Below the pieces are notes generated by a model. It saw only the letters and a program-made list of their open reading frames with translations, did no database searches and had not been told where the DNA came from. From positions 22,548 through 86,547 of the forward strand of contig CAZQNQ010000018.1 of the NCBI GenBank assembly GCA_964594985.1: a stretch of 64,000 nt of DNA, given 5' to 3'. Position 1 is the stretch's first letter, and each line of letters starts with the position of its first letter. Positions 21,923 through 63,099 of this stretch are shown here, piece after piece. Both the position numbers and the translations under genes were made by a program. This DNA is from an uncultured Bifidobacterium sp. GTDB taxonomy: Bacteria > Verrucomicrobiota > Verrucomicrobiia > Limisphaerales > JADLHS01.

Positions 21923-22084
21923 TTGGAACAGGCAAACAGAGAAGACCGAGAGTAGCGAAGTCAGATATTCGACGTTGTTACTCCAGTTCCGGAGCCACTG
22001 TTTTGTGGCTGCCGGACTTCGTCTCAAACCGTCCAGGCCCGCATCGTTTCCGGCTCTGTTTTCTCCGTTCCCTCCTGTTCAAAA
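21923..22084 (-). repeat. E-type palindromic repeat, copy with about 100-nt central insert (intergenic)
   Basis: Arms ttGGAACAGGCAAACAGAGAAGACCGAGAG (21923-21952) and GGCTCTGTTTTCTCCGTTCCCTCCTGTTCAAAAG (22052-22084) match the arms of the copies at 62498-62602 and 63011-63099. Confidence 0.5.
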
Positions 22085-22246
22085 GAATCGTTCCGGCTAA
22101 GAGCAAAAGCTGCGCGACAGTTCCAGTCGCATCCCGTGACGCGCGCCACCGCACACGGCGGCTTGACCTTTTGCGGCTGGTCGTCATGATTCGCGCCGTG
22201 ATGAAACCTCATCACCCAACTCCGACCGACGCCCAATCCGCCGCCT

Positions 22247-23245
22247 ATGATCACCGTCGCCGTCTTTGACACCAAACCTTACGACCGCGAAGCGCTGCAA
22301 CAGATCGCCACCCCCGGCATCGCGTGGCACTTCCTCGACTTCCGCCTGACGAAAGAAACCGCGCCGTTGGCCAAACCCGCCCGCGCCGTTTGCGTGTTCG
22401 TCAACGACCAGTTGAACCGTCCCTGTCTCGAAGCGCTCGCGGAGCAAGGCGTCGAACTCATCGCGCTCCGCTGCGCCGGCTTCAACAACGTGGACCTCGC
22501 GGCGGCGAAAGCACTCCAACTCACCGTCACCCGCGTGCCCGCTTATTCGCCGCACGCCGTGGCCGAACACGCCGTGGCGTTGCTGCTGGCGTTGAACCGC
22601 AAGATTCATCGCGCCTACAACCGCGTGCGAGAACAAAACTTTTCGCTGCACGGCCTGGTCGGATTTGATCTCCACGGCAAGACCGCCGGCATCATCGGCA
22701 CGGGCAAGATCGGCCGGCTCGTCGCCCAGATCCTGCGCGGCTTCGGCATGACCGTGCTCGCCTACGACCCGTTTCCCGCGACCGACTGGGCGCAACAGCA
22801 CGGAGTGACTTACGGAGACGCCCGCACCCTCATGCAAAACAGCGATGTGGTTTCGCTCCACCTTCCGCTGACGCCGGAAACCAAACACCTGATCCGCGAG
22901 GAGACTCTGGCGGTGATGAAACCCGGCAGCGTGCTCATCAACGTCAGCCGGGGCGCGCTGATTGATACGACGGCACTGATCGCCGCGCTCAAGTCCGGAC
23001 AACTGGCGGGCGTGGGTTTGGACGTCTATGAGGAAGAGGAAGGAATTTTCTTTGAAGACCTGTCCGGCCAGGTGTTGCAGGACGATGAACTCGCCCGGCT
23101 GCTCACGTTTCCCAACGTGCTGATCACCGCGCACCAGGCATTCCTCACGCGCGAAGCCCTCGCGGAGATCACCCGCGTCACCGTCGCCAACCTCACCGCG
23201 CTCGCCGCCCGCACCGCGTTTGTGCCGGGGTCGGTGTTGACCTGA
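22247..23245 (+). CDS. ldhA: D-lactate dehydrogenase (D-isomer-specific 2-hydroxyacid dehydrogenase)
   Basis: Collinear with E. coli LdhA as I recall it: MITVAVFDTKPYDREAL..., LRCAGFNNVDLAAAK, RVPAYSPHAVAEHAVALLLALNRKIHRAYNRVREQNFSL, GKTAGIIGTGKIGRLVAQILRGFGM, NVSRGALIDT, TAHQAFLTREAL. Confidence 0.9.
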   Translation: MITVAVFDTKPYDREALQQIATPGIAWHFLDFRLTKETAPLAKPARAVCVFVNDQLNRPCLEALAEQGVELIALRCAGFNNVDLAAAKALQLTVTRVPAYSPHAVAEHAVALLLALNRKIHRAYNRVREQNFSLHGLVGFDLHGKTAGIIGTGKIGRLVAQILRGFGMTVLAYDPFPATDWAQQHGVTYGDARTLMQNSDVVSLHLPLTPETKHLIREETLAVMKPGSVLINVSRGALIDTTALIAALKSGQLAGVGLDVYEEEEGIFFEDLSGQVLQDDELARLLTFPNVLITAHQAFLTREALAEITRVTVANLTALAARTAFVPGSVLT

Positions 23246-23356
23246 AATGTTTTGAGGAACTTGAAGCGCACGCGTAAAGCACCGAAACTGCCAAGAACGC
23301 CAGCCGCCCCGGCCTCAGGCATTCACTCCCCGGCCACTAAATCAGGGCAAGGCCAC

Positions 23357-24448
23357 TCAGCGCCTGAACCGCTCTGCCACCGCTGAATTGGTGGTGATGG
23401 CCAGGCTGAAGTATTCCCCAGCAGCTATCGCAGCCACATCGCTCAAACCTGCTGGCACTCCATACTTGGTCCTCGACCCATGCCCCCAAACAACCACATT
23501 CCCATCTGCTTTTAGTGCCATGCTATAAGCTTGGCTGGCGGCGATAGCCACAACATTCGTTAACAGCTGGCCCTCAATCATAACTAAGCCACTGGCTCTG
23601 CATTCAGGGTCCGCATGCACCTTCCCGTTAATCACCACCAACCCGCGAGCTTCGTTCTCAATGTCCGCCTTAGACTTCTGTTTTGTCCGAATCCCAGTTG
23701 CTTGTCCATAATCATTGGCACCCCATCCGAAAACCGTCCCATCACGTTTCAAGGCGAGGCTATGATTCCGACCAAGCGCGGCAGCAACTACATTGCTCAA
23801 CGAAGTTGGAGGCCGCAAATCAGGCATATCCAACCCTGGCGTCCAACCAATTACACCGCCATCCGACAAGATCGCAATACTACGCTCAGTCGCATCACCG
23901 GCAGAGGCAATTCCCACGACATTACTAAACTCGACACTATACTTGTCTGGCATCGGCCAACTGACTATGCGCCCACTCTTTGTCAGCGCTGAACTGCGCA
24001 TGTGGCCCGTTGCAATTGCAACGACGTCTTTCAAGTCAAGTGGTGGCCCAATAGGCGTTTTCTTTCCTAACGGTTTTGACCCCCAACCTACCACCGTTCC
24101 GTCATCTTTGAGTGCCATGCTGTAGTCATGTCCGGCGCAGATTGACACAACATTAGATAACCCTGACGGCACGGTTGCCTGCCCAGAATAATCAGAACCC
24201 CAACCATAAACGTGGCCGTCTTGACTAAGTGCCAGTCCGTGCGCCGTGCCTGCCGCTACTTGAACAATGTTACTCAGCTGGACACTTGCTATATGCACTG
24301 TTCCTGTTGCTGGTTTTGCAATCCCGTCGTCGCCAACGCACCGCCCCCACATCACGACGCTCCCAGATACAGCCCCCAAAACGCACCAACACGAAGAAAG
24401 TATAAACAAAGCGACCAAAGTGATAAACATAACCAGTTGGGATTTCAT
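23357..24448 (-). CDS. RCC1-repeat (beta-propeller) protein with N-terminal signal/anchor
   Basis: About 7 repeats of the type HSLALKRDGTVFGWGANDYGQATG, HGLALSQDGHVYGWGSDYSGQATVP and YSMALKADGNVVVWGHG. N-terminal MKSQLVMFITLVALFILSSC. G+C lower than the flanks. Confidence 0.8.
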   Translation of the reverse strand: MKSQLVMFITLVALFILSSCWCVLGAVSGSVVMWGRCVGDDGIAKPATGTVHIASVQLSNIVQVAAGTAHGLALSQDGHVYGWGSDYSGQATVPSGLSNVVSICAGHDYSMALKDDGTVVGWGSKPLGKKTPIGPPLDLKDVVAIATGHMRSSALTKSGRIVSWPMPDKYSVEFSNVVGIASAGDATERSIAILSDGGVIGWTPGLDMPDLRPPTSLSNVVAAALGRNHSLALKRDGTVFGWGANDYGQATGIRTKQKSKADIENEARGLVVINGKVHADPECRASGLVMIEGQLLTNVVAIAASQAYSMALKADGNVVVWGHGSRTKYGVPAGLSDVAAIAAGEYFSLAITTNSAVAERFRR

Positions 24449-24655
24449 AACGACTATTACTGCTCCACTGTAGTGACAGCGTCCAAGATTCCCCGGCGTG
24501 CTGTTATTCCAAACTTCGTAATTGGAACAAGCGCCATGAAACTCCCACCTTTAACTCCGGGCAAGACCAATTTTGCCAAAGTCTCATCATCTTTGGCTTC
24601 TGCCGCTTAGAGTGTACTGCAAAAAGAATGTCGGAAACGGGGGACTGGCAAAACG

Positions 24656-24717
24656 CCCCTCACCCCGGCCCTCTCCCCATCCGATGGGGAGAGGATGGCC
24701 GCAGGCCGGGTGAGGGG
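24656..24717. repeat. Palindromic 'PSDGER' repeat, copy 2 (intergenic)
   Basis: CCCCTCACCCCGGCCCTCTCCCCATCCGATGGGGAGAGGatggccgcaggCCGGGTGAGGGG. Both the inner and outer stems are intact. Confidence 0.85.
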
Positions 24718-24829
24718 TTTTCTCATCTCAACCCGGAAATTATTTCTGAGAACCAATCTAGGCGTTTCGCTCGACACGAACTGCATGAAGACAGACATTG
24801 GAGACCAAGAAACTTACCGGGCGTCACGG

Positions 24830-24859
24830 TTGACTTGCGTCGCGGCAGTTCGATAGGCT
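24830..24859 (+). promoter_or_regulatory. Candidate sigma70-type promoter for the second Omp85-like gene
   Basis: TTGACT (24830-24835), 18 nt spacer, TAGGCT (24854-24859), giving a very short leader before ATG 24868. Confidence 0.25.
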
Positions 24860-24867
24860 TTCAGCGC

Positions 24868-26106
24868 ATGGCAAATACCTCGCGTCGCCTGCCCCGTCTT
24901 TTCCTCAAAACGACTGGTTCGGTTTTCGTCTCAGTCGTTTTATTTTCCAACCCGACGCCCGCTCAAGAAGGCACGTCCCGGAATTCTTACGCTGATGGGG
25001 CGGCGCCATTGCTGACCATGCCCGGGGCGGATGCGCCGGAGCGAACAGGAGCCGGCGATATCGTTGACTCAAAGCCACCGGCGTCTGACCCGGCTTCGAC
25101 CAACAAGAACGAATTCCTGGTTGCTCCCATCCCATCTTACAAGCCGACCTTCGGGTTTGGCCTACAGGTGATGGCCGGTTACCTCTTCGCGGTGGATCCA
25201 GAGGACAAAGTTTCGCCCCCCTCTTCGGTCATGTTGATGGGATACGCTGCTGAGAACGGGTCCTGGCTGGGAGGGTTCGGGAGCCGGTTCTTCTTGAAGG
25301 AAGACCAGTATCGCCTGATCGGCGGCGTCTTTACCGGGCGCTTGAACTACGACTACGCCGGCGTGGGAACCGACGCCGGCGATAGCGGGCGAACCGTCCC
25401 GCTGGAACAAAACATGACGGCGGTGATTCTTGAACCGCTGACTCGGATTGCGCCGCATCTGTACCTCGGCCCCCGGTATCTTTACGCCAACATGCGGACG
25501 ACGGCGGATCTCGCCTCCCTCGGTAATCCGGCGCTCCCGCCCCAGGTGGAGCGGGAGTCACTCCAGTCCATGATTGGTGCCCATCTCCAATACGACACCC
25601 GCGACAGCGTTTTTAACCCCCGCAAAGGAATGCTCGTTGACTTTCACGCCGATTTTCACGACCGGGCCTGGGGCGACGATTTTAACTACCAGGTGTATAA
25701 GCTTTATTGCAACCAATACTTTTCCCTGGGCGAGGGGCAGGTGCTGGCCGTGCGCGCCGCCGCCCAGGTGTGCGCCGGTGATGTCCCGTTCTATTCTCTG
25801 GCGACGATTGGGCGGGGGCCAGACTTGCGCGGCTACGAGTATGGCCAGTATCAGGACGAAACGCTGCTGGCCGCCCAAGCCGAATACCGGCTTCGACTGA
25901 CCAAACGGTTCGGCGTGGTGGGCTTTGCGGGCGTTGGGGCCGTCGCTCCTTCGCTGTCCGATTATTCGGCAGATGATCTTCTACCCAGCGTCGGCGCGGG
26001 CTTGCGCTATGTCTTGGCGGTGAAAAATCAAATCTCCATGCGACTCGACTATGCTTATGGCCGGGATGGCGGGAAATTGTATTTCACCGTGGGCGAGGCT
26101 TTTTAG
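24868..26106 (+). CDS. Omp85-superfamily outer-membrane beta-barrel without recognisable POTRA domains (paralog of 15069-16310)
   Basis: ATG 24868 (MANTSRRLPRLFLKTTGSVFVSVVLFSNPTPAQ); the track start 24628 lies in the repeat. YDTRDSVFNPRKGML, VPFYSLATIGRGPDLRGY, GAGLRYVLAVKNQISMRLDYAYG, C-terminal YFTVGEAF. Confidence 0.75.
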   Translation: MANTSRRLPRLFLKTTGSVFVSVVLFSNPTPAQEGTSRNSYADGAAPLLTMPGADAPERTGAGDIVDSKPPASDPASTNKNEFLVAPIPSYKPTFGFGLQVMAGYLFAVDPEDKVSPPSSVMLMGYAAENGSWLGGFGSRFFLKEDQYRLIGGVFTGRLNYDYAGVGTDAGDSGRTVPLEQNMTAVILEPLTRIAPHLYLGPRYLYANMRTTADLASLGNPALPPQVERESLQSMIGAHLQYDTRDSVFNPRKGMLVDFHADFHDRAWGDDFNYQVYKLYCNQYFSLGEGQVLAVRAAAQVCAGDVPFYSLATIGRGPDLRGYEYGQYQDETLLAAQAEYRLRLTKRFGVVGFAGVGAVAPSLSDYSADDLLPSVGAGLRYVLAVKNQISMRLDYAYGRDGGKLYFTVGEAF

Positions 26107-26261
26107 CCACTACCCAGGCGGAGGTCGTGCTGCCGATTAGAGCATTTTAATTTTTTCCATAGCCTCAAAAATTCACAAAAACCTCAAACTACTGCTTTGA
26201 TTTGTGCTTTTTGTGCCTCTTTGCGGCTCCAGTTTTAATTAAACAGCTATAGATGGCGCAG

Positions 26262-26420
26262 TCACGCGCGAAGCCCTCGCGGAGATCACCCATGTCACCA
26301 TCGCCAATCTCACCGCGCTGGCCGACCGCACTCCCGTTTGTGTCCAGATCAGTGTTTGACTTGAATTGTTTCGGGGAACTCCGCGCGCTTGCGTAAAGCA
26401 CCGAAGCCGCCGGGAAGGCC
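26262..26420 (+). pseudogene. Relic of the ldhA 3' end plus its downstream flank (second copy)
   Basis: The first 30 nt (tcacgcgcgaagccctcgcggagatcaccc) are identical to 23145-23174. Similarity (about 80% by eye) continues past the stop codon to gcgtaaagcaccgaa. The relic encodes TREALAEITHVTIANLTALADRTPVCVQISV*, versus TREALAEITRVTVANLTALAARTAFVPGSVLT* in ldhA. Confidence 0.75.
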
Positions 26421-26507
26421 ATTGACCGGGCTCAACATTCCGATCCTTTCTTGGCTCAGACTAACACTACACGGCCCGAAAAAGTCGAGTCACGTCAATA
26501 ATTTGAA

Positions 26508-26738: not shown

Positions 26739-26758
26739 ACGCTTCGTTCTGAGTTTGC

Positions 26759-27163: not shown

Positions 27164-27279
27164 AAATCACTGACCTCCCCCCGAGAATCAGGCCGGAGTT
27201 GAGTTGAGAGTGAGCTGCAACCTCGGCTGGACCTGGATAAAGCTGCGGAGCCGAGGCCAGTGGCCCCGGCTCCGGTCGC

Positions 27280-33407: not shown

Positions 33408-33505
33408 GTGTGACTGGAACCGCCGCTCACCGGCGCGGTTCTTAATCTTACTCTTAATCTTGTTCTTAATCTCCCGGCCCGGGAGATTAAGATTAAGAGT
33501 AAGAG
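33408..33505. repeat. About 100-bp repeat 'D' copy 2
   Basis: gtgtgactggaaccgccgctcaccggcgcggttcttaatcttactcttaatcttgttcttaatctcccggcccgggagattaagattaagagtaagag. See copy 1 at 21669-21772. Confidence 0.85.
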
Positions 33506-39740: not shown

Positions 39741-39803
39741 AGGAACAACAACTGACACCGGAAACGGAACTTCAGATTTGTTCCCGGTTCGCTCCATTTC
39801 CTC
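39741..39803 (-). repeat. E-type palindromic repeat, degenerate copy
   Basis: aggaacaacaactgacaccggaaacggaaCTTCAGATTTGTTCccggttcgctcc shares the loop CTTTCAGATTTGTTC with 40953-41030. The flanking tcattccggg (39828-39837) equals the HAD stop context at 41027-41036. Confidence 0.5.
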
Positions 39804-40774: not shown

Positions 40775-40908
40775 GTAGGGCAGGCTTTCCAGCCTGCCAG
40801 TGCGGGCGACTTTCCAGTCGCCCGTTCCCAGCGCTTCCCACACCAGACCCAAGCGAAACACGGGGTTGGAAAACCCCATGCACCGGCAGGCTGGAAAGCC
40901 TGCCCTAC
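40775..40908. repeat. Long hairpin element (24-bp perfect arms, two internal mini-hairpins)
   Basis: GTAGGGCAGGCTTTCCAGCCTGCC (40775-40798) is the exact reverse complement of GGCAGGCTGGAAAGCCTGCCCTAC (40885-40908). Internal stems GGGCGAC-tttcca-GTCGCCC (40803-40822) and GGGGTT-ggaa-AACCCC (40862-40877). Confidence 0.85.
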
Positions 40909-40952: not shown

Positions 40953-41030
40953 TTAATCAAGAGGAAACAGACTTTCAGATTTGTTCTCTGTTCCCTCCGT
41001 TTGCTCCGGTTCAATCGCTTCCAGTTTCAT
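40953..41030 (-). repeat. E-type palindromic repeat abutting the HAD stop codon (ATGA junction)
   Basis: Minus strand: ATGAAACTGGAAGCGATTGAACCGGAGCAAACGGAGGGAACAGAGAACAAATCTGAAAGTCTGTTTCCTCTTGATTAA. ATG 41030-41028 overlaps the HAD TGA 41029-41027. Mini-ORF MKLEAIEPEQTEGTENKSESLFPLD. Confidence 0.75.
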
Positions 41031-42004
41031 TCCGGGAAAATGGCCTTCCAATCGTCCCTCATGCTCACCACCGTCCAACCTTTGGCAACGGCATCGTCCC
41101 ACGCTTTGTCCAGCGTGCCGATGCGGGATTTGCGGTCGTAAGCCCATTCGCGCTTCTCGTCGTCGTGATGGACGAGCAACGCGAACCGCGCGCCGCCGCC
41201 GGCGGTCGTCCATTGGAGCATTTGCAGGTCGCCGTCGGAATTGCCGAAGGCCGCGATGGGCCGTCGCCCGATGTGCTGCTGGATGCCGACGGGTTTGCCC
41301 GCCTTGTCGTCCACGAAGTTGATCTCGGGCAATTTCAGGATCACCGGCTTGCCATCGCGCAACTCGAACTTGAGCTTGCCACTGCTGCCGATGACTTGCT
41401 CGGGTGGGATGCCATAAACTTTTTCCGTCCACGGCCGCATGAACTCGATACCGCCGCCGGAGACGATGAACGTCTTGAAGCCGTTCGCGCGCAGGTAAGC
41501 GAGCAGTTCGAGCATCGGTTGATAAACCATCTCCGTGTAGAGCTTCCCGGTCTTGGGATGTTTCGCGGTGGCGATCCAGTCTTTGACCAATTGCTCAAAC
41601 TCCTCGGTGGTGATGCCGGCGTGCGCCGCCACGATGATCTCCAGCAATTCCTGCTCGCTCACGGCCACGTTCTCTTCCTTGGGCGTGCTGAGGAGTTTGT
41701 TGAACGGTGATTTCGTTTTCCATTCGGGATGCTGGGGCGCAAGGGCTTTCACGCGATCCAGCGCGAAACGCAACTGGAAATAAATCGGCTGCTCGGCCCA
41801 AAGCGTGCCGTCGTTGTCGAACGTGGCGATACGTTCGGGCGCGGGCACGAAGTCCGGCGAACCTTCTTTCGTCACCTTCTCGACGAAGGCGACGATGGCT
41901 TGTTTGGGCGCGGTATCGTTCCACGACGGCAGCGGATCGGCGGCGTGAAGATTGGGTAACAGCAGGAGACTGGTGATTGCAATCAAGTGAGGGATGGTTT
42001 TCAT
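41027..42004 (-). CDS. Secreted HAD-superfamily hydrolase (HAD-IB/acid-phosphatase-like), copy 1
   Basis: Signal peptide MKTIPHLIAITSLLLLPNLHA. Motif I IATFDNDGTLW, motif II FIVSGGG, motifs III/IV K...AFGNSDGDLQML. About 85% identical by eye to 46519-47508. Confidence 0.8.
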   Translation of the reverse strand: MKTIPHLIAITSLLLLPNLHAADPLPSWNDTAPKQAIVAFVEKVTKEGSPDFVPAPERIATFDNDGTLWAEQPIYFQLRFALDRVKALAPQHPEWKTKSPFNKLLSTPKEENVAVSEQELLEIIVAAHAGITTEEFEQLVKDWIATAKHPKTGKLYTEMVYQPMLELLAYLRANGFKTFIVSGGGIEFMRPWTEKVYGIPPEQVIGSSGKLKFELRDGKPVILKLPEINFVDDKAGKPVGIQQHIGRRPIAAFGNSDGDLQMLQWTTAGGGARFALLVHHDDEKREWAYDRKSRIGTLDKAWDDAVAKGWTVVSMRDDWKAIFPE

Positions 42005-42045
42005 GTGAGGTTTTGGTGCTTGTCAGGTTATGGCGTTTGATCAGT

Positions 42046-42873
42046 TCATTCCGGGAACACAAAGGTGATGGAGAACCGCAATCCCCAGTCCGGGCCGCCG
42101 GTGGGCTTGTCCGCGTAATAGCGTCCGCCGAGTTGGAAACTGACCGGCATGTTTCCGATCTTCACCAATTGCGTAATAAAGAGATTCAGCGGCACGGTCC
42201 ATTGCTCGTTCTCCCAGTCATAAGTGGACTCGGTGTTGAAACCAAAGGTCGTGTGTGACTTGGTGGTGTAATTGAGGAACGGTTGCAGGAACGTGGCGCT
42301 GACATCCTGCCGGCTGCTTTCCCCCGCGAACGACCAGAGATGTTGCGCCAACACACCGACCGTCCAGCCATGCGATTGCTTTAGAAAGATCGCCGACGGG
42401 CCGGCCCCCCACTTTTCACTGCCAAGCAAATCATCCGTGGCGGTGGGCAACTGGATGATCGGGCCAACGCCCCAGATCGGCGCACCCGCCTTTTCCTTTT
42501 CCGGCGAGAACCACAGCGTCACCGTCGAGTCGCCCAGGCCACTCTGGCTGCTGGTGCCGACGCGATCTTCCTGATAAATGTAGGGCACGATGGTGCGCGA
42601 CAGAATTTTCCAGTCGTCATTCAACTGGAACGGAATGACCGGCTGGATGTTCAGTTTGTATTGAAAACCATCGTCATTCGGCCCGCCGCCGAAATCGAAG
42701 TTGTTCTGCAACGGCACGCTGATGAGTGAAGCGGCGGGGTTGTTCAACTTCTTCGCCAGCTCCGCCATGTCCGCGCCGGCGGGCACGGGGTCGGGTGACT
42801 GAGCGGGGGTGGCGTGGCTGGCACCGAGGACGGCGGCAACGACGGGAATCAGGAGTTTGGTTTTCATTTTCAT
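42046..42873 (-). CDS. Outer-membrane transporter-like beta-barrel (MetA-pathway/phenol-degradation-like family)
   Basis: Signal peptide MKMKTKLLIPVVAAVLGASHA. LNNPAASLISVPLQNNFDFGGGPNDDGFQYKLNIQPVIPFQLNDDWKILSRTIVPYIYQ resembles that family. The call is tentative. Confidence 0.55.
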   Translation of the reverse strand: MKMKTKLLIPVVAAVLGASHATPAQSPDPVPAGADMAELAKKLNNPAASLISVPLQNNFDFGGGPNDDGFQYKLNIQPVIPFQLNDDWKILSRTIVPYIYQEDRVGTSSQSGLGDSTVTLWFSPEKEKAGAPIWGVGPIIQLPTATDDLLGSEKWGAGPSAIFLKQSHGWTVGVLAQHLWSFAGESSRQDVSATFLQPFLNYTTKSHTTFGFNTESTYDWENEQWTVPLNLFITQLVKIGNMPVSFQLGGRYYADKPTGGPDWGLRFSITFVFPE

Positions 42874-48594: not shown

Positions 48595-49298
48595 TTGGCT
48601 TCCTCCTTTACGCCTTTCGTGTCGTTCTGTGAAGCCTGTGCCTGATAGGCAAATTTCGCCCGCAGAAAATCGCCCGGCGTGGTCTGCACCCGCCGCAACC
48701 AGGTGGCCCGCAGTTCCTCGTCCGACATCTTTTCGCCGTTCATCTCCACCGGCTGACCCTTTTTGTCAGCGCCCTTCTGGTCGAACACAATCTCATCCGG
48801 CTTGTAGGCATCCGCCGATTCCTGACGATCTTCACCCGCTTTATCAATGAGCTGCTTGCGCGCAAGGGCCAGCGCCTTGTTCTCCTCGGCTTCCTTCCAG
48901 CCGGGACGGAAGCCCAATGCCCGGTCGTAGCTTTCAATGGCGGAGTCATACTTCCCATGCATCAACCACGCGTTACCTTGATCGAACGCGCCGTCCGCGC
49001 CCGGCACGCGCGCAAAGGTTTTCGCCGCCGCCTCGAAATCGCCATTGCGATATTGCGCCACGCCGATGCGCCAGGGATCACTGTAAGCCTGCGCCGCTTC
49101 GGCAAACTTCTTCTCCGCGAACAGATGATCGCCCCGCTGATCTGCCGTTCGCCAGAACTGTGGATTGCGAATTGTCCCGACGGTGAGAATCAACAAAAAC
49201 AAAACTCCAAGGCCGATTTGAACAGAAGCAAACGAAGAGCGCGAAGCCTTGGTGGCTTCACTTCTTTGCTTACTTTGCTGACTTCTGTTTGAGTTCAT
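48591..49298 (-). CDS. TPR-repeat membrane-anchored protein (BatC-like)
   Basis: TM IGLGVLFLLILTV. TPR-like AEKKFAEAAQAYSDPWRIGVAQYRNGDFEAAAKTFARV...GNAWLMHGKYDSAIESYDRALGFRPGWKEAEEN. The first ~26 codons are encoded by an F-type repeat. Confidence 0.7.
   Translation of the reverse strand: MNSNRSQQSKQRSEATKASRSSFASVQIGLGVLFLLILTVGTIRNPQFWRTADQRGDHLFAEKKFAEAAQAYSDPWRIGVAQYRNGDFEAAAKTFARVPGADGAFDQGNAWLMHGKYDSAIESYDRALGFRPGWKEAEENKALALARKQLIDKAGEDRQESADAYKPDEIVFDQKGADKKGQPVEMNGEKMSDEELRATWLRRVQTTPGDFLRAKFAYQAQASQNDTKGVKEEAK
49215..49298 (-). repeat. F-type palindromic repeat forming the 5' coding end of the TPR gene (ATGA junction with the VWA gene)
   Basis: Minus strand: ATGAACTCAAACAGAAGTCAGCAAAGTAAGCAAAGAAGTGAAGCCACCAAGGCTTCGCGCTCTTCGTTTGCTTCTGTTCAAATC. 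ATG 49298-49296 overlaps TGA 49297-49295. Confidence 0.75.
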
Positions 49299-51847: not shown

Positions 51848-52812
51848 CGCAAACGCGCTCCGAGTTGATGCCGGATCTGGTCCACGACACTTTCGCTCGT
51901 GCTCAACGGAATCACAGGCGTCTCGCGATGCAGTAGAAATTTTCTGCCGGCAGCACGCTGTTCGGCGAATGTCTCGCGAAACCGCGTCCGTAAACCGCGA
52001 TCATTGGTATCCACTTCCAGTTGTTGCACGCCATCACCGAAGACAAGCGGGCCAGCGGCGGGCAGTTCAGTTTCCAGTGGATCATGCACGAACGCGAACA
52101 ACACATCGTTGTGCCGCGCGATGCGCGTGAGCAACTGGCGCGATTCCTCATCGTGTCCCGCGCCGTCGCTGATGATGCAGACGAGGCAATCATGCTTGGC
52201 CAGCCGGTCACAGCGGCGCAATACGTCGTTGAACATGCCAGGATTAGGACGGACGCCGGAGTTGAGTGACAGCGCCCGGTTTTGTTCGACAATCGTTTGA
52301 AGAATCCGCATCACCGTGGCCTGACTGCGTTGCGGCCGGATCTCAACAATTTGTGAATCGTTGAACACCAAGGCGCCGACACGGTCTTTCTGGGACAACA
52401 CGCGCCACGCGCCGAGCGCGGCCATCTCGGCGGCGGTGACGGACTTCATGTTCTTCACGCTGCCGAAAAACATGCTGGCGCGTTGGTCCACAAGCAGCAG
52501 CGTGGTGCGCTCGCGTTCCTCGGTGAAAACGCGACTGTGGGTTTTGCGCGTGCGTGCGGTGACTTTCCAATCGATCTGCCGGATGTCATCGCCGAGTTGG
52601 TAGCGCCGGATTTCCTCGAAATTCAACCCGCGCCCGCGCAACCGTGAGGCGTGTCGGCCGGAGAGGAGTGATTGAATGGGTTGACGGGGAAGAAAACTGA
52701 AACCGTGCGCACGATGCTGCAAAGCAACCAAGTCACCCAAACTGACGTAAACACCGGGAGCTTCGGTTTGAACAGAAGGACGCGAAGATAGCGAAGGCGA
52801 ACTGGAGTTCAT
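51844..52812 (-). CDS. DUF58 domain protein (MoxR-operon partner)
   Basis: ATG 52812. ...LRGRGLNFEEIRRYQLGDDIRQIDWKVTARTRKTHSRVFTEERERTTLLLVDQRASM is the DUF58 core. The first ~16 codons (MNSSSPSLSSRPSVQTE) come from an F-type repeat arm. The track start 53034 reads through the GxxExxY gene in another frame. Confidence 0.8.
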   Translation of the reverse strand: MNSSSPSLSSRPSVQTEAPGVYVSLGDLVALQHRAHGFSFLPRQPIQSLLSGRHASRLRGRGLNFEEIRRYQLGDDIRQIDWKVTARTRKTHSRVFTEERERTTLLLVDQRASMFFGSVKNMKSVTAAEMAALGAWRVLSQKDRVGALVFNDSQIVEIRPQRSQATVMRILQTIVEQNRALSLNSGVRPNPGMFNDVLRRCDRLAKHDCLVCIISDGAGHDEESRQLLTRIARHNDVLFAFVHDPLETELPAAGPLVFGDGVQQLEVDTNDRGLRTRFRETFAEQRAAGRKFLLHRETPVIPLSTSESVVDQIRHQLGARLR

Positions 52813-52847
52813 AACTCTTTGCTCCCTTTGCGTTCTTCTGTTTCCAC
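52765..52847 (-). repeat. F-type palindromic repeat at the GxxExxY-1 / DUF58 junction
   Basis: Minus strand: GTGGAAACAGAAGAACGCAAAGGGAGCAAAGAGTTATGAACTCCAGTTCGCCTTCGCTATCTTCGCGTCCTTCTGTTCAAACC. The loop holds TGA (52811-52809) of GxxExxY-1, overlapping ATG (52812-52810) of DUF58. Confidence 0.75.
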
Positions 52848-53309
52848 TTTCGTTCCAAACCCGCCGCCGTCTGCGCCGGGGAGGATGAGCCGATGAATCC
52901 CATCGACAAGACGGGCTTCGTGAAAGTTGATGAGCAGCCCCAGCGGCGCATTGAGGAGCTTCATGTAACTCAGCAACTGCGCTTTGTGGATGGGAAGAAC
53001 TTTTTCCACGGCTTTTAGTTCGAGGATGAGGCAATCGCCCACATACACGTCCAGCTTCAAAGGCTCATCGAAAATGAAGCCTTTGTATTCGACCGGAACA
53101 ATCAGTTGTTGTCGTGCTGGAATATTTTGCAATGACAACTCTCGCATCAAGCACTTCTCGTAAATGGATTCGACCAGGCCCGGCCCTTTCTCGCGATGCA
53201 CTTCAATCGCCGCGCCGATGACCTTGCGGCTCAACTCGTCCGCGCGTTTGAATTTTGGATGCACAGCTTGAACAGAAGAACGCAAAGATCGCGAAGGGGT
53301 CTCATTCAT
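52809..53309 (-). CDS. GxxExxY protein (PD-(D/E)XK nuclease-like fold), copy 1
   Basis: KVIGAAIEVHREKGPGLVESIYEKCLMREL (G-x-x-E-x-x-Y) and D...ILELKAVEKVLPIHKAQLLSYMKLLNAPLGLLINF (E-x-K). ATG 53309. The ORF is also open in-frame up to ATG 53348, which overlaps the moxR stop. Confidence 0.85.
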   Translation of the reverse strand: MNETPSRSLRSSVQAVHPKFKRADELSRKVIGAAIEVHREKGPGLVESIYEKCLMRELSLQNIPARQQLIVPVEYKGFIFDEPLKLDVYVGDCLILELKAVEKVLPIHKAQLLSYMKLLNAPLGLLINFHEARLVDGIHRLILPGADGGGFGTKVETEERKGSKEL

Positions 53310-53348
53310 CCCTTTGCGATCTTCGCTGCCTTCTGTAGAAGTCCTCAT
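53266..53348 (-). repeat. F-type palindromic repeat at the moxR / GxxExxY-1 junction (ATGA junction)
   Basis: Minus strand: ATGAGGACTTCTACAGAAGGCAGCGAAGATCGCAAAGGGATGAATGAGACCCCTTCGCGATCTTTGCGTTCTTCTGTTCAAGC. ATG 53348-53346 overlaps the moxR TGA 53347-53345. Confidence 0.75.
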
Positions 53349-56023: not shown

Positions 56024-56074
56024 AATGGTGGTTCCGATGCTTGTTTATTTGCGGCTCATGAAATGTCTCGTGCG

Positions 56075-57901: not shown

Positions 57902-59059
57902 TCAATTTCTAACCAACCCGGGACAACGATCCAGTCGCGCCTCAATCTCACCCAGCATGGCCCGATAGCGAGGAGCACCGACGCCGCCAAAATCCCGCCG
58001 GAACTCTTCCACGGTCAAACTCTCCGGCAGATCGTTAATCTCCGGGAAAAAATCCGCCGTCGTAAAACCGGTCCGCAACCGGGATTGCGAAGCCATCGCC
58101 GCATCGAACGAGTCGGTGGTCGCCGCCGCGAAGCGCACGCCGGCGCGATCCGCCGCCAGGTCGCCGAACGAAAACCCGCTGCCATGCGCCAACGCATCAA
58201 GTTCCTCCTTCAGCAACCCGCCCGCGTCACTCAAAAATGGGTCCTCCACCACCGCCAGGGCCGCGCTCAGACAAAAATGCCGCGCCCAATCCTCCCGCCC
58301 GGCCAGTTTCGTTCCCGCCCGGGCCGCGACGGCCTCTCGAACCAATTCACTGTCCCGCTTCAACCCGGCGTACCGCGCCAGGCGCTCGTGCCCGATGACG
58401 ATTCCCAAGGCCAGGATGGCGGCGCGATTCTGGGTCAACGTATCGAATTGCGGCGCGGCATCCGGCAGCGGCGTGAATACAACCTGCATCAGGACCGCGA
58501 AGCGTTGTTCGCCCGCGTTGGACCATTGCGGAGAGGCCGCAACAATGCGTTGTAATTGCATTTCCGTGGCGCGGCTCAATCCCGTCGCTTGCCCCGGCCA
58601 GCTCGCCCACCCCAGACCGAGCAACAGCAACCCGATCGCCGCCACCGTCACCCGCCAGCCGTGCTGCCGGAACAACAGTCCCGCCACGACGCCGAGCGTA
58701 CAGGCCGACACCGGCACGATGATATTGGCGAGCATCGGCCAATGCCCCAGTTTCGCCACCCGGATGAGCAGCGCCACCCCGACGACGACCACCGGCAGCA
58801 GCACCAAGCGCAACCAGCGCGCCAGCGGCTTCTCTCCCGGACCGACGGCGAACGCGGTGATCGCTCCCAAGGAACCATACAACGTCGTCTGTAATCCCAC
58901 GACGCAGAGAAAATAGGCGACCTTCCAACTCAATCCCAGTGAAGCATGGACCGCTTGCGCAAGCCCGAGTGGCGGCAACAATGGCGCGGGCAACAATACC
59001 AACGCCAGGAGCGCCACCCCGACGGCCACCCTGCTCTTGGTACTCGCAAACATGGCCAC
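57902..59059 (-). CDS. Hypothetical polytopic membrane protein with C-terminal soluble domain
   Basis: The track start 59059 is GTG; an ATG lies at 59053. About 5 TM helices in the first ~170 aa (e.g. VAYFLCVVGLQTTLYGSLGAITAF, LRLVLLPVVVVGVALLI). No family recognised. Confidence 0.5.
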   Translation of the reverse strand: MAMFASTKSRVAVGVALLALVLLPAPLLPPLGLAQAVHASLGLSWKVAYFLCVVGLQTTLYGSLGAITAFAVGPGEKPLARWLRLVLLPVVVVGVALLIRVAKLGHWPMLANIIVPVSACTLGVVAGLLFRQHGWRVTVAAIGLLLLGLGWASWPGQATGLSRATEMQLQRIVAASPQWSNAGEQRFAVLMQVVFTPLPDAAPQFDTLTQNRAAILALGIVIGHERLARYAGLKRDSELVREAVAARAGTKLAGREDWARHFCLSAALAVVEDPFLSDAGGLLKEELDALAHGSGFSFGDLAADRAGVRFAAATTDSFDAAMASQSRLRTGFTTADFFPEINDLPESLTVEEFRRDFGGVGAPRYRAMLGEIEARLDRCPGLVRN

Positions 59060-59070
59060 AGGGTCTCAGT

Positions 59071-59862
59071 TCAGACGGGTTGCAGCCGCTTTCGGACTGC
59101 CGTCGGCAGACTCCGCACCACCAGCCCCACCGCTTCCTCGGGCGAATCGGTGACGTGGCCAAATCCGATCTCTTCCTTGGCGAACACGCCGGCCTTCATC
59201 ATCTCCTGCCCCCATTCGCGCAGGCCTTTCCAAAAAGCCGACCCCATCAGGATGACGGGGAACGGCCCGATCTTCCGGCATTGCACCAGCGTCGCCGCTT
59301 CGAAGAGTTCGTCCAGCGTGCCCAAGCCGCCGGGCATGACGATGAACGCGCACGAGTATTTCACCAGACAGACTTTGCGCGTGAAGAAATAATGGAACTC
59401 GAGGCTGCGATCCACGTAGGGATTCTCCGCCTGCTCATGCGGCAGGATGATGTTCAATCCGTAACTCTTGCCGCCGGTCTCATGCGCGCCGCGATTCGCC
59501 GCCTCCATGATGCCCGGCCCGCCGCCGGTCAACGTGGCGAAGCCCGCCTTGGCGAGTTCCGAGCCGACCGCGCGAGCGAGCTTGTAATAGGGATGCGTCT
59601 CCTTGAAACGCGCCGACCCGAACACCGTCACAGCCGGGCCGACCTGATAGAAAGTCTTGAACGCGCGCTCGAACTCCTGATTGATGCGTTTGAGCCGGGC
59701 GCGTTCCTTCTGCGGCGTGCGGGCGTGGCCCAGGAATTCCTGTTCCGCGCCGGCGGGCAATTCGTAGCCGGGCAACCCGACCTTGCTCCAATGCTTCTGC
59801 CAACTGCGTTCCCATTCCCCCAGCGTTGGCTGCTGATAAGGTCGCTTGGTTGTTCGCTTCAT
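59071..59862 (-). CDS. LOG-family protein (TIGR00730 Rossmann-fold nucleotide-binding; cytokinin riboside 5'-monophosphate phosphoribohydrolase-like)
   Basis: ATG 59862. VTVFGSARFKETHPYYKLARAVGSELAKAGFATLTGGGPGIMEAANRGA...FIVMPGGLGTLDELFE (PGGxGTxxE). Confidence 0.85.
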   Translation of the reverse strand: MKRTTKRPYQQPTLGEWERSWQKHWSKVGLPGYELPAGAEQEFLGHARTPQKERARLKRINQEFERAFKTFYQVGPAVTVFGSARFKETHPYYKLARAVGSELAKAGFATLTGGGPGIMEAANRGAHETGGKSYGLNIILPHEQAENPYVDRSLEFHYFFTRKVCLVKYSCAFIVMPGGLGTLDELFEAATLVQCRKIGPFPVILMGSAFWKGLREWGQEMMKAGVFAKEEIGFGHVTDSPEEAVGLVVRSLPTAVRKRLQPV

Positions 59863-59903
59863 AATCAGTTCCCCAGCCCGGCGCGACCAGATCCCGAAAG
59901 CGC

Positions 59904-60386
59904 TTACTTCAATCGGCTGGCCACTTCGTCGAGCAAATTTTGATAAGGGCGGCTGCGCACGTTCGCCAGCTTCTGTTCCTCGGCAAAAAACGCGTCGCCC
60001 GCGTCCTTGACGATGAACGCCTGACATTGCAACCGATAGGCGCCCGCGCCGAGGTCCACCAGACTGACCTTGACCCGCACCAGCGTCTGCGCGCCATAGT
60101 GCGAACCGATCACGCCTTCGTAGGCGATGTTGGTCATGCGCGAGGCTTCCTTCTCGAAGACCAACTGACCGCCCGCGGAACCGGCCTTGTAGCCGTCCTC
60201 CTGAAACACCGCCACCGCCGTCTTGGAAATCACTTCCGGTTCCTGCCCCCGGATGATCACCGAGGCGAAACTGGCCGAGGCCGGCTTGGTGGCGCCGCAA
60301 CCCGCGCCAAACAACACCAGCAGGGCGCTCAGGAGAACCGCGCCCCGGACCGACCGTGCGGCGATAACAGCGAGATGGGATTTCAT
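59904..60386 (-). CDS. Hypothetical lipoprotein
   Basis: ATG 60386: MKSHLAVIAARSVRGAVLLSALLVLFGAGCGA (lipobox). 160 aa, no family recognised. Confidence 0.5.
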   Translation of the reverse strand: MKSHLAVIAARSVRGAVLLSALLVLFGAGCGATKPASASFASVIIRGQEPEVISKTAVAVFQEDGYKAGSAGGQLVFEKEASRMTNIAYEGVIGSHYGAQTLVRVKVSLVDLGAGAYRLQCQAFIVKDAGDAFFAEEQKLANVRSRPYQNLLDEVASRLK

Positions 60387-60429
60387 GATGATTGGGAAAC
60401 AAGATGGCTGGCGGGTGCTGCCGGACCGA

Positions 60430-60816
60430 CTATTCCCCCTGCGTGTGCGCCCGTTGCCGCGCGGCCAGATAGCGGTCCATTTCGGCGACATCCTTGAACA
60501 CCGCGACGCCGGGCAGCGACTTGATGATCTCGAAGACCTCCTGGATCTGCGGCTGCATGTGGATGAACGACACCTGCCCGCTGCGCTCCTTCAAAGTTTT
60601 GCGCGTGGTGGAAAACACCCGCAACCCGGCGCTGCTGATGAATTTCAAGTTCGCGAGATCAAAGATCAAGTCCTTCACCCCGCCGCCCAATACCGGCGCC
60701 AGTTGCTTCTCCAGTTCGGGAGCGGTGGCGGTGTCGAGACTGCCGGCGAGTTTGATGGTGACGGCGCCGGCATTCGCCCCGGCGAGATTCTTTTGGATTT
60801 GGATTTCCAGTGGCAT
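60430..60816 (-). CDS. STAS-domain anti-sigma-factor antagonist (SpoIIAA/RsbV-like)
   Basis: VTIKLAGSLDTATAPELEKQLAPVL...LIFDLANLKFISSAGLRVF, with the phosphorylatable Ser context ISSAGL. Confidence 0.85.
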   Translation of the reverse strand: MPLEIQIQKNLAGANAGAVTIKLAGSLDTATAPELEKQLAPVLGGGVKDLIFDLANLKFISSAGLRVFSTTRKTLKERSGQVSFIHMQPQIQEVFEIIKSLPGVAVFKDVAEMDRYLAARQRAHTQGE

Positions 60817-60863
60817 GTGATTTCGATGGTTAAATTTTCAACGTGGCTCTTGCGGGCAAAAGA

Positions 60864-62501
60864 CTATTCTCCGTGTGTTTCCAATACAAGCCGCTTCCGC
60901 AGGCGCAGGACATTCGCCCCGGCTTCGCGTCGGTAGGAAATTTCGTCAACATAACGCCGGACCAATCCGATCCCCCAGCCGCCGGGCAGATCATCGTCCT
61001 CGGCCTGGGGCTTGGACGACGTGGCCGCCGTCGGATCAAACTCCGGCCCGCCATCCCGCAACTCAATCGTGAACGCCGCCGCGGTATGTTCGAGAATGAC
61101 TTGAAAAGTCTTCTGCGCCTCGCGCTGCAACGCGTGGTTGACGATGTTGCTGCCGCATTCCTCCAACGCCAGCGCAAGACCGAACAACAATTTTTCCGGC
61201 ACGCCCTGCCCCGCAGCAAACTCCTGCATGGCCTCGACCGCGCGCATGACCTCCTCCGGCGTGGCGTGCAGTTCCAAACTGACACGAGATGGATTTTGAA
61301 CAGGAGGTAACGGAGACAACTGAGACTCGGCAGAGGAATTCTCCGTTCCCTCTGCTTGCTCCTGTTGAATCTTCAGTGTCAAAATCGCAATGTCATCGGA
61401 CTGCGGCGCGCCGTTGGCAAACGCGCGGACTTTTTGCAGCAGGCTCGCGGTGATTTCAGCCGCAGCTCGACCAGCCAACGCGCCAGCCTCCACTAACAGC
61501 CGGTCATTGCCATAACATTCCTCCTGCGGATTGAACGCCTCGCTCACGCCGTCGGAATACAAAATCAAAGTGTCGCCGGCACCCAACGTCAACTCGGTGC
61601 GCTCGAATCCCAGCCCCGGCTCGAAGCCGAGCGCCGTGCCGAGATTCTTCACCGCCCAGCGCGGCGTGCCACCCGCCGGCAACAGCACCGGACGACAATG
61701 CCCGCCGTTGGCAATCACCAGCCGGCCCGACTTCGGCTCGAACACCGCGCACAAAAACGTCACGAACATGCCCGAAGGATTGTCCGCCGCGAGTTCGTCA
61801 TTGAGCCGCGCGAGAATCCGCTCCGGCTCGGCGATGTCCCGCGCGAGCAACCGCGCCAGACTGATTGCGCGCACCATGAACATCGAGGCCGGAATCCCCT
61901 TCCCCGAAACGTCGCCGAGAAAAACCACCAGCCGTTCCGGTCCCGCCGCGCATACGCCGTAAAGATCGCCGCCCACTTCGCGCGCCGGTTCGAGGATCGC
62001 GCCGAAACTCACGCCATACGCCTGTTCAAACGGCGAAAAATCATGCGGCAACATGCCCATCTGAATCTCGCGCGCCACGCGCAGTTCGCTGGCGATCTGC
62101 TCCTTCACCGCATCGCTGTACGCCTTCGCCTTGAGCAACGATCGGACGCGGGCCTTCACTTCGAGCATGTCGAACGGCTTGGTGAGATAATCGTTCGCGC
62201 CCGCCTCGAACCCGCGCGTCTTGTTCTGCACCTCTTCGAGCGACGAGAGAAACATGATCGGCACTTCCGCCGTCTCCGGCATCGCGCGCAGCCGGCGGCA
62301 CACCTCGTAGCCGTCCAGGCCCGGCATCATGATGTCGAGCAACACCAGATCGGGCGGCATCTTCGCGGCGACCTGCAACGCCATCTCGCCATTCAGCGCA
62401 AGACTGAGTTTGTGGTCCGCCTTCAGCCCCTCGACGAGGATATCGAGATTGGCCTTGGCGTCATCCACCAGCAACACGCGGCAATCGGAAAGATTTTTCA
62501 T
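60864..62501 (-). CDS. Response-regulator receiver + PP2C/SpoIIE phosphatase + RsbW-like HATPase (anti-sigma Ser kinase) fusion
   Basis: REC: VLLVDDAKANLDIL...DLVLLDIMMPGLDGYEV. PP2C: GGDLYGV...FLGDVSGKGIPASMFM...LILYSDGVSEA. Linker from an E-type repeat. C-terminal LALEECGSNIVNHA...ELRDGGPEFDP...GGWGIGLVRRYVDE (HATPase_c_2-like). Confidence 0.85.
   Translation of the reverse strand: MKNLSDCRVLLVDDAKANLDILVEGLKADHKLSLALNGEMALQVAAKMPPDLVLLDIMMPGLDGYEVCRRLRAMPETAEVPIMFLSSLEEVQNKTRGFEAGANDYLTKPFDMLEVKARVRSLLKAKAYSDAVKEQIASELRVAREIQMGMLPHDFSPFEQAYGVSFGAILEPAREVGGDLYGVCAAGPERLVVFLGDVSGKGIPASMFMVRAISLARLLARDIAEPERILARLNDELAADNPSGMFVTFLCAVFEPKSGRLVIANGGHCRPVLLPAGGTPRWAVKNLGTALGFEPGLGFERTELTLGAGDTLILYSDGVSEAFNPQEECYGNDRLLVEAGALAGRAAAEITASLLQKVRAFANGAPQSDDIAILTLKIQQEQAEGTENSSAESQLSPLPPVQNPSRVSLELHATPEEVMRAVEAMQEFAAGQGVPEKLLFGLALALEECGSNIVNHALQREAQKTFQVILEHTAAAFTIELRDGGPEFDPTAATSSKPQAEDDDLPGGWGIGLVRRYVDEISYRREAGANVLRLRKRLVLETHGE
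61291..61376 (-). repeat. E-type palindromic repeat translated in-frame as the inter-domain linker
   Basis: Minus strand: CTGAAGATTCAACAGGAGCAAGCAGAGGGAACGGAGAATTCCTCTGCCGAGTCTCAGTTGTCTCCGTTACCTCCTGTTCAAAATCC = LKIQQEQAEGTENSSAESQLSPLPPVQN. Same frame as the mini-ORF of copy 62498-62602. Confidence 0.75.
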
Positions 62502-62602
62502 GGAACAAAAAAATTCTTAACAGGAGACAACAGAGGAAACAGAGGAATAAAAAAGTAAATCTCCATTCCCTCTGTTTCCTCCTGTTCAAATTCTGGTTTC
62601 AT
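62498..62602 (-). repeat. E-type palindromic repeat downstream of GxxExxY-2, containing a 34-codon mini-ORF
   Basis: ATG 62602-62600 lies 1 nt after the GxxExxY-2 TAA (62606-62604). MKPEFEQEETEGMEIYFFIPLFPLLSPVKNFFVP. Its TGA (62500-62498) overlaps ATG (62501-62499) of the REC-PP2C gene. Confidence 0.8.
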
Positions 62603-62603
62603 C

Positions 62604-63005
62604 TTATTGATTTGCTCCGGGCAAAATCAACCGGCTGACCCCATCCGTCACTTTCATTTCAAAGAAGTTGAGCAGGAGTCCGATGGGAGCATTGAGCAGT
62701 TTCATATAACTGAGGAGTTGCGCTTTGTGGATGGGCAGAATCTTCTCCACCGCCTTTACCTCCACCAACACACAACCCTCGACCAACACATCCAATCGCA
62801 ACGGTTCTTCCCGAGTGAAGCCTTTATACTCCACCACTACCTGCTTCTGGCTGACACAACTCAAACCGCGCAAACCAAGTTCCTTTGTGAAACACCATTC
62901 GTAGATGGACTCAATCAGTCCCGGCCCCTTGTCGCGATGCACTTCAATGGCGGCGGCAATGATCGTCTCCGTCAGTCCGGATGCTTTTTGATACAAGGGG
63001 TGCAT
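62604..63005 (-). CDS. GxxExxY protein (PD-(D/E)XK nuclease-like fold), copy 2
   Basis: ATG 63005: MHPLYQKASGLTETIIAAAIEVHRDKGPGLIESIYEWCFTKEL...LDVLVEGCVLVEVKAVEKILPIHKAQLLSYMKLLNAPIGLLLNF. The track start 63086 is a TTG inside the repeat. Confidence 0.85.
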   Translation of the reverse strand: MHPLYQKASGLTETIIAAAIEVHRDKGPGLIESIYEWCFTKELGLRGLSCVSQKQVVVEYKGFTREEPLRLDVLVEGCVLVEVKAVEKILPIHKAQLLSYMKLLNAPIGLLLNFFEMKVTDGVSRLILPGANQ

Positions 63006-63010
63006 GGAAT

Positions 63011-63099
63011 TCTTAACAGGAGGCAACGGAGGAAACAGAGAAATAAAGAAATCTTTTCTCTGTTCTCTCCGTTTCCTCCTGTTCAAGTTCAGGTTTCAT
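63011..63099 (-). repeat. E-type palindromic repeat upstream of GxxExxY-2 (ATGA junction with the hybrid-kinase stop)
   Basis: Minus strand: ATGAAACCTGAACTTGAACAGGAGGAAACGGAGAGAACAGAGAAAAGATTTCTTTATTTCTCTGTTTCCTCCGTTGCCTCCTGTTAAGAA. ATG 63099-63097 overlaps TGA 63098-63096. The mini-ORF MKPELEQEETERTEKRFLYFSVSSVASC stops 7 nt before ATG 63005. Confidence 0.8.

Follow-up and report, generated by a model that had tools for sequence, protein, structure and literature searches.

A stretch of 64,000 nucleotides from an uncultured Verrucomicrobiota bacterium (contig CAZQNQ010000018.1, positions 22,548 to 86,547; hereafter the window) contains short imperfect palindromes at the points where one gene stops and the next one starts, and the locus raises the question of what these units are and how they came to occupy such narrow junctions. 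An earlier note on this DNA had described nine copies, of an E and an F type, as a family phased on stop codons that preserves the translational coupling of ATGA overlaps. The analysis presented here points elsewhere: on balance, the units are probably the end modules of small selfish cassettes with the gene of a GxxExxY protein, a predicted nuclease of the PD-(D/E)XK type, or gene-less remnants of such cassettes. Unit counts refer to the 64 kb of the window.

The E and F units are two types of one design. In a unit, which is 60-90 bp long, a tag of the TTGAAC type leads into three 9-bp motifs and a loop, after which the arrangement is inverted; the arms are approximately 28 nt long. The E form reads TTGAAC-AGGAG, nnAACrGAG twice, the loop, and an inverse that ends in CTCCTGTTCAA; the F units have an E-like layout, but with AGAAG and n(n)GCrAAG as their motifs. 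The E-arm pattern AACAGGAGNNAACRGAGNNAAC has eight matches (two mismatches or fewer) in the window versus none in 100 shuffles, and a profile derived from 431 arms detects paired arms at seven loci (63011/63056, 62515/62556, 61295/61336, 53268/53308, 52767/52812, 49217/49260 and 21932/22052) and a single arm at 40984, in the 41k copy. The repeats are therefore a genuine homologous family, and the sequences and ATGA coordinates quoted in the earlier note are all as described there. Six units have strong predicted hairpins of -27 to -42 kcal/mol (-42.1 kcal/mol for U1), with fold z-scores against shuffles of -8.2 (U1), -6.2 (U2), -5.7 (F1), -5.1 (F3), -4.6 (F2) and -3.9 (the 61.3k unit), and the scores are weak for the 41k copy (-2.4), the 21.9k copy (-2.0) and 39741-39803 (-1.3). 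The last of these has no match to the arm profile and has the loop ACAAATCTGAA in common with the 41k copy, and the arms of the 21.9k copy are separated by an unrelated loop of approximately 110 nt. The nine loci thus comprise six strong hairpins, two decayed copies (41k and 21.9k) and one doubtful copy, to which extent the original count stands. The units lie exactly at stop/start junctions in this window, as had been claimed. The statement that all of them share one orientation is empty, because the palindrome has its purine arm first on either strand and reads alike on both; the eight pattern matches fall four on the plus and four on the minus strand. A direction can be defined only via the ATGAAAC prefix of three E copies, and the host genes there are all on the minus strand. 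Among the genome loci listed, TTGAAC stands at the arm starts in 67 of approximately 130 cases in one count and in 86 of 207 in another.

Table 1. Repeat units and GxxExxY genes in the window (positions are those of the window).
Feature	Coordinates	Strand	Details
U1, E unit upstream of GxxExxY-2	63011..63099	-	5' arm 63086-63056, 3' arm 63043-63011
U1 prefix ATGAAACCTGAAC	63099-63087	-	TGA of the prefix is the native hybrid kinase stop
U1 inverted repeat	63011..63099	-	29 nt, 90% (inverted-repeat search)
GxxExxY-2 gene	62604..63005	-	133 aa, starts MHP, PF13366 / TIGR04256
U2, E unit downstream of GxxExxY-2	62498..62602	-	5' arm 62590-62556, 3' arm 62547-62515
61.3k E unit	61291..61376		in-frame linker between SpoIIE and HATPase_c_2 domains, gene 60864-62501
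F1, F unit	53266..53348	-	directly 3' of native moxR ATGA
GxxExxY-1 gene	52809..53264	-	start GTG 53264, alternative ATG 53348
F2, F unit	52765..52847	-	loop holds ATGA 52812-52809
F3, solo F unit	49215..49298		directly 3' of native VWA/TPR ATGA
41k copy, solo E unit	40953..41030	-	3' of HAD gene, ATGAAAC prefix, truncated 3' arm
39.7k copy, doubtful decayed E-like	39741..39803		z -1.3, loose alignment to 41k copy
21.9k copy, split E unit	21923..22084		5' arm 22084-22052, weak 3' arm 21953-21932

The key to the family is the arrangement around the two GxxExxY genes. As shown in Table 1, each gene is flanked by units of the same type, GxxExxY-2 by U1 and U2 (E) and GxxExxY-1 by F1 and F2 (F), an arrangement that the earlier note had missed. 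The window contains two complete cassettes (F1-GxxExxY-1-F2 and U1-GxxExxY-2-U2, the latter located between the kinase and response regulator (RR) genes) and five solo or decayed units. U2 is a direct repeat of U1. In both long open reading frames (ORFs), the PF13366 / TIGR04256 domain begins at residue 38 and the first 37 codons are a repeat unit; the actual genes both begin with MHP, at the ATG at 63005 and the GTG at 53264. At its other end, GxxExxY-1 has a tail of 19 codons that enters the 5' arm of F2 and is closed by the TGA in the F2 loop.

The two proteins score 124.9 and 132.8 bits for TIGR04256 (cut-off, 35) and 120.4 and 126.8 bits for PF13366 (cut-off, 22). The residues D72, E82 and K84, which form a PD-(D/E)XK signature (D...E-x-K), are invariant in the alignments, and by its sequence GxxExxY belongs to the PD-(D/E)XK nuclease family, with predicted nuclease activity; PADLOC gave a weak match to the Cas4 core. 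A sequence search of the PDB found no solved relative and a search of PHROGs found none, and in the PF13366/TIGR04256, PADLOC and PHROGs searches neither protein of the window fell into any recognised transposase family. At 50% identity, the family has 14,115 cluster representatives (E <= 0.001), which include two-domain read-through fusions and many fragments. Proteins of approximately 275-295 aa with two GxxExxY domains (e.g., P0363, P0376 and P0377) probably arise where translation passes through a stop-free unit from one tandem cassette into the next.

The association of units and nuclease genes extends well beyond the window. Scanning contigs from one genome per species for E arms gave at least 120 stretches; 69 of 80 among those listed are assigned by their titles to Planctomycetota or Verrucomicrobiota, and a partner arm lies near most of the matches listed. 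E arms are widespread in these two phyla, and the family belongs to the PVC superphylum (Planctomycetota, Verrucomicrobiota and relatives). A GxxExxY match is present in 8 of the 120 listed E loci and lies directly against the E arms in all eight. Conversely, starting from the two proteins of the window, we examined 80 metagenome loci with genes for their relatives, 72 of them with a complete gene. By gapped local alignment with shuffled controls, the two flanks of the gene are complementary above the 99th percentile of the shuffles in 53 of the 72 (74%), and 58 of the 72 have some inverted-repeat signal. Two layouts occur: hairpin-gene-hairpin, as in the window, and 5' arm-gene-3' arm, with the gene in the loop. 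The distances between a 5' arm and the 3' arm that follows it have a bimodal distribution, with approximately 99 units of 50-100 nt and 26 spans of 450-702 nt; GxxExxY lies inside all 26 of the long spans, and no other cargo gene or ORF was found between arms in this survey.

The repeat type tracks the phylogeny of the nuclease. Three types of flank were distinguished, namely, E, F and a third type, K, with AACGAAG motifs, and 66 of 70 proteins share their flank type with their nearest neighbour (29.5 expected; maximum of 45 in 2000 permutations). The closest relatives of GxxExxY-1 (L175, L177 and L172) are all F-flanked, and those of GxxExxY-2 are all E-flanked. Since motif type follows nuclease clade, the GxxExxY protein itself may well be the reader of the motifs. 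Tandem unit-GxxExxY-unit arrays occur at L110 1780-2560 and in the downstream flanks of L141 and L134; there, the next unit follows a second copy of the gene that either has an internal deletion or retains nothing but its last codons (PGAN..TGA). Such arrays are signs of frequent recombination between units. In addition, two related metagenome contigs, L172 and L180, have orthologous gene-in-loop insertions whose arms differ between the contigs while each pair is still nearly complementary (28/29 in L172), unlike solo units. Proteins identical to those of the window were matched only on 1-kb Logan contigs.

Occupied and empty orthologous sites bear directly on how the cassettes arrived. In L122 and L123, moxR and DUF58 meet in a bare ATGA overlap with nothing between them, and the gene table of a third relative (a JGI contig, MoxR 92% identity) gives a 4-nt overlap; in the window, the insert runs from just past this ATGA to the DUF58 ACC and consists of F1, GxxExxY-1 and F2. 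At the kinase/RR junction, L204 has no unit and L206 has a split E unit, with arms approximately 370 nt apart and other sequence between them, including a palindrome of the CCTCTCCCC ... GGGGAGAGG type at 5670-5870 that also occurs at 2584-2632 of the window. The 61.3k insert, which is translated as QQEQAEGTENSSAESQLSPLPPVQ, amounts to 18-28 in-frame residues; among orthologues, it is present in P0121, P0122, P0124, P0125 and P0135 and absent from P0139, P0145, P0159 and P0181, and in L204 a 54-nt deletion within it has left a remnant. The tolerance of a unit in coding sequence, which had been proposed before, is thereby confirmed. At the 3' end of HAD, where the window has the solo 41k unit, L137 carries a full unit-GxxExxY-unit cassette (2360-3055), on either side of which stands a diverged copy of the final ~66 nt of HAD (KNGWIVISMKNDWKKIFAFEP before and KNGWTVISMKNDWKVIFPFESKL after); this duplicated gene end suggests co-transfer of a donor flank or an unusually long target duplication. 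In the window, HAD and its upstream neighbour gene end in the identical 13 nt TTCCCGGAATGAA (41026-41038 and 42045-42057), and a unit follows HAD only; the shared end may mark a preferred target or a footprint, or may be due to chance.

These sites also permit an assessment of the view that the units form an independent REP-like (repetitive extragenic palindromic) or MITE-like (miniature inverted-repeat transposable element) family spread by some other enzyme, with GxxExxY as a passenger or homing gene lodged in or next to them. More than 90% of the listed E units are solo, including all those on the 56 viral-contig stretches; GxxExxY remnants were looked for beside the solo units of the window, including the 21.9k copy, and none were found; and the two units of a cassette are alike as direct repeats (z +3.2 and +2.5), as expected if the gene had recombined into a unit. 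However, the repeat type follows the GxxExxY clade, and in the loci examined no other enzyme gene was seen to recur beside the units and no other cargo ORF turned up between arms. Moreover, the empty moxR/DUF58 sites carry no solo unit, and hence there was no unit at the site when the gene and its two units arrived. Taken together, we regard an independent family as unlikely.

If the cassette is the element, the next point is whether its ends are conserved as RNA or as DNA. Structured RNA, such as an mRNA stabiliser, an RNase III site like those of rRNA intervening sequences or a terminator, would place selection on the hairpin, and the strong predicted hairpins described above agree with this, as do the near-perfect arms that bracket a whole gene in an intervening-sequence-like manner in L138 and L153 (both 27/27) and L192 (26/27). 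On the other hand, the variable positions of the 9-mers (nn and r) exhibit no covariation between arms (200 matches versus 209 +/- 10 in re-paired arms; 77 units, z -0.9), and within cassettes the two arms of a hairpin match each other less well than arms paired at random (z -2.7 and -2.2). On the sense strand, G:U mismatches were not significantly commoner than A:C mismatches (160 versus 134, p = 0.14; 91 versus 88 for the cross arms). An Rfam search of the units at gathering thresholds gave no match, intrinsic terminators were at chance level (27 versus 23.6 +/- 5.5), and the units, which end in GTTCAA(A) or GTTAAG, lie within operons and in one coding sequence. The lack of both covariation and G:U bias argues against a selected RNA stem, and we consider a structured RNA improbable, giving it less credence than any other reading weighed here. 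The conserved feature is the 9-bp motif of each arm, not its pairing, which fits inverted repeats recognised as DNA by a protein better than an RNA stem.

The composition of the arms explains how such units persist among tightly packed genes. In 77 distinct units, the 5' arms contain 3.1% T and the 3' arms 3.4% A, and because a stop codon requires T together with A or G, the arms hold no stops in any frame on either strand; stops are possible only in the tag (T-TGA-AC) and the loop. The mean number of open frames per unit is 2.07 of 3 in the sense direction and 2.07 in the antisense direction, and approximately 0.9 would be estimated for random sequence of this length. Mini-ORFs, read-through extensions of N-termini, the in-frame linker, and the tag TGA as the commonest stop for long ORFs that enter a unit (8/77) all follow from the stop-free arms. 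One of the nine copies lies wholly inside a host protein and two more lengthen N-termini: F3 is within the first 27 codons of the TPR gene, before the membrane helix, and the 3' arm of F2 encodes extra N-terminal residues of DUF58.

Reading frames chain through both cassettes, as previously reported, with gaps of -4, +11, +1 and -4 nt. U1 ends in GTTAAG; the TAA in it is the stop of a 28-codon mini-ORF and lies 11 nt ahead of the GxxExxY-2 ATG. At the end of the 34-codon mini-ORF of U2 (62602-62501), the TGA overlaps the start of the RR-SpoIIE gene, which is natively ATG-AAA. The tag of F1 is TTCTAC instead of TTGAAC and so lacks the TGA, with the result that the ORF from the ATG at 53348 runs in frame into GxxExxY-1, and the ATGA in the F2 loop ends this ORF and starts DUF58. 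Such chaining is what would be expected of stop-codon-phased spacers that keep translational coupling, carrying or targeting ATGA and relaying ribosomes through mini-ORFs, as the earlier note had in essence proposed, and the absence of a frame-breaking TGA ahead of GxxExxY-1 is in its favour. The two strands are, however, equally open, and the mini-ORF frames differ from copy to copy, so that there is no conserved peptide, and the mini-ORFs are a by-product of the stop-free arms.

The ATGA motif itself supports coupling spacers within the window and fails to do so outside it. Among the long ORFs of the window, 31 of 51 stops are TGA and 12 of 51 ORFs (~24%) end in ATGA; the host stops that bear a unit are ATGA in 4 of 4 cases versus 8 of the 47 other long-ORF stops (hypergeometric p ~0.002, a post hoc comparison). 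In the 120 listed genome loci, in contrast, ATGA is found at 4 of 34 stops with an E unit 0-40 nt downstream and at 211 of 1739 stops elsewhere (p = 1.0), i.e., it is no commoner at repeat-bearing junctions, the very outcome that the earlier note had named as contrary to its claim. The prefix regular expression that it put forward has three matches in the window and none in 256 related loci, and K-type cassettes follow TAG stops 18 nt upstream. An ATGA within 30 nt upstream of an arm near GxxExxY genes is more frequent on the sense than on the antisense strand (32/109 versus 18/112, p = 0.024), which agrees with coupling; most of this excess traces to the GxxExxY genes themselves, as 14 of the 21 closest ones of E type have ATGA or GTGA at their end, a property that a coupling spacer would likewise predict. 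Finally, the kinase ACA-TGA, the moxR/DUF58 ATGA, the VWA/TPR ATGA and the ATG-AAA start of the RR gene are native, as they are seen in unit-free relatives, and by this comparison at least three ATGAs of the window predate the insertions. The family as a whole follows no ATGA rule; the phasing characterises this genome or, at most, one sub-lineage, and we hold a coupling spacer to be very unlikely as an account of the units. The elements of this lineage may prefer to land after ATGA: all three resolved sites fit, which is suggestive at most given a background of 24%.

We therefore return to the cassette as the source of the units. In the mechanism that we envisage, the nuclease would recognise the 9-bp motifs as DNA and drive copying by homing or transposition, and the gene-less copies would be the MITE-like or solo form of the cassette. 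Units would land beside existing ATGA stops in a genome in which approximately a quarter of the long ORFs end in ATGA, and host selection would then keep the downstream genes translated through arms that are unable to stop a ribosome. A broader claim, which we advance tentatively as a possibility, is that GxxExxY proteins are the enzymes of an unrecognised class of mobile element, in which a nuclease of ~125 aa reads inverted-repeat arrays of 9-bp motifs and copies itself and its gene-less derivatives into gene junctions of Planctomycetota and Verrucomicrobia, the arms having evolved to be stop-free in six frames for life in coupled operons and genes.

Several points weigh against the cassette as the origin of the units. 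No GxxExxY match lies within the 8 kb examined at 112 of the 120 listed E loci, and the 56 viral-contig stretches carry units without GxxExxY, and hence the units may spread by another agent. No direct repeat or target-site duplication was found at the moxR/DUF58 insertion beyond a 1-nt ambiguity, nor was a direct repeat found at B-type ends, and no exact ends of the element could be defined. No single simple mechanism accounts for the two layouts. A query of four sequences supplied the 80 GxxExxY loci as its best matches, and these sample one subfamily only; genes were approximated by crude long ORFs. The AlphaFold model of GxxExxY-2, made from a shallow alignment of 24 sequences, had a pLDDT (predicted local distance difference test) score of 46 and was unusable, and nuclease-driven mobility, the step by which the units would spread, is one that we infer.

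Two other kinds of palindrome are present in the window. The G+C-rich inverted pairs at 40775-40908, 21790-21876 and 3786-3871 start with GTAGGGC (e.g., GTAGGGCAGGCTTTCCAGCCTGCC ... GGCAGGCTGGAAAGCCTGCCCTAC) and look like classical GTAG-tagged REP doublets, a second palindrome family unrelated to E/F. A third family, with 6-nt periodic arms (TCTTAATCTTAATCT ... CCCGG ... AGATTAAGATTAAGA), occurs at 21700-21771 and 33440-33505 and is rich in TAA, unlike E/F. All three families are stacked in the intergenic region at 21.7-22.1 kb.

A literature search found no description of the E and F repeats, which is no proof that none exists. GxxExxY (TIGR04256 / PF13366) is a very large family without a known function that is rarely named in the literature, and cognate dispersed inverted repeats give it a testable function, as the REP-RAYT link did for REPs. 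Many of the mini-ORFs, tandem "fusions" and spuriously extended N-termini annotated in PVC genomes are explained by the cassettes, which may also account for the frequent contigs of ~1 kb with GxxExxY genes, as expected if assemblies break at repeats. The stop-free arms provide a simple and general reason for the survival of an element in 4-nt gene overlaps and protein linkers.

Among known systems, the closest analogue appears to be the REP and REPIN (REP doublet forming hairpins) palindromes with their RAYT (REP-associated tyrosine transposase), GTAG- and CGTC-tagged repeats reportedly described by Nunvar in 2010 and by Bertels and Rainey in 2011. A REP is a palindrome of 20-40 bp with a GTAG or CGTC tag at one end, and RAYT is an HUH Y1 transposase flanked by the repeats. 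The units described here resemble them as short, tagged, imperfect palindromes that lie mostly just downstream of genes and sometimes in ORFs, whose termini can supply a stop, and whose type is cognate with the clade of an enzyme encoded by a repeat-flanked gene. They differ in that the tag is TTGAAC or a variant, neither GTAG nor CGTC; the arms are three 9-bp motif repeats of ~28 nt each; the flanked gene encodes a PD-(D/E)XK nuclease of 125-135 aa, not an HUH tyrosine transposase; and the gene-carrying form is itself multicopy. With MITEs and their parent insertion sequences (IS), they share terminal inverted repeats, a pair of forms with common ends (one short and gene-less, the other longer and with the gene), and positions beside coding sequence, but neither a target-site duplication nor a recognised transposase family was seen here, and many cassettes have a full hairpin on each side instead of one arm per side. 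With the tag and enzyme of REPs absent, and with no known transposase or visible target duplication such as MITEs and IS have, we class the units with neither family.

PD-(D/E)XK homing endonuclease genes and the ORF-bearing intervening sequences of 23S rRNA offer a further comparison, since here too a small nuclease ORF is bracketed by repeats of its likely target, is present or absent at orthologous sites and may sit in the loop of a long stem. The cassettes, however, lie outside introns, inteins and rRNA, and the putative homing would be directed at dispersed repeats instead of one unique, conserved site in a gene. The direct-duplicate flanks fit a homing endonuclease gene within its own target, whereas the empty moxR/DUF58 sites without a unit do not. 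The unit ends GTTCAA do not fit, by eye, the GTTRRRY core (R''/R') of integron attC sites, near which IntI is encoded. Rickettsia palindromic elements are in-frame inserts in protein genes that are tolerated as extra peptide and have no known associated enzyme gene; the likeness is in this tolerance, and they differ from the units in sequence, host phylum and the enzyme gene that is present here. These elements are cited as background in PMC3733652, according to which GTAG REP termini often provide the stop codon of flanking ORFs and REPs also occur inside ORFs. The supply of stops and the tolerance in coding sequence, which the earlier note had taken to be without precedent, are thus both found in GTAG REPs (PMC3733652). 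The units and their cassettes are best read as a system that resembles REP/RAYT or MITEs but has a different enzyme at its centre.

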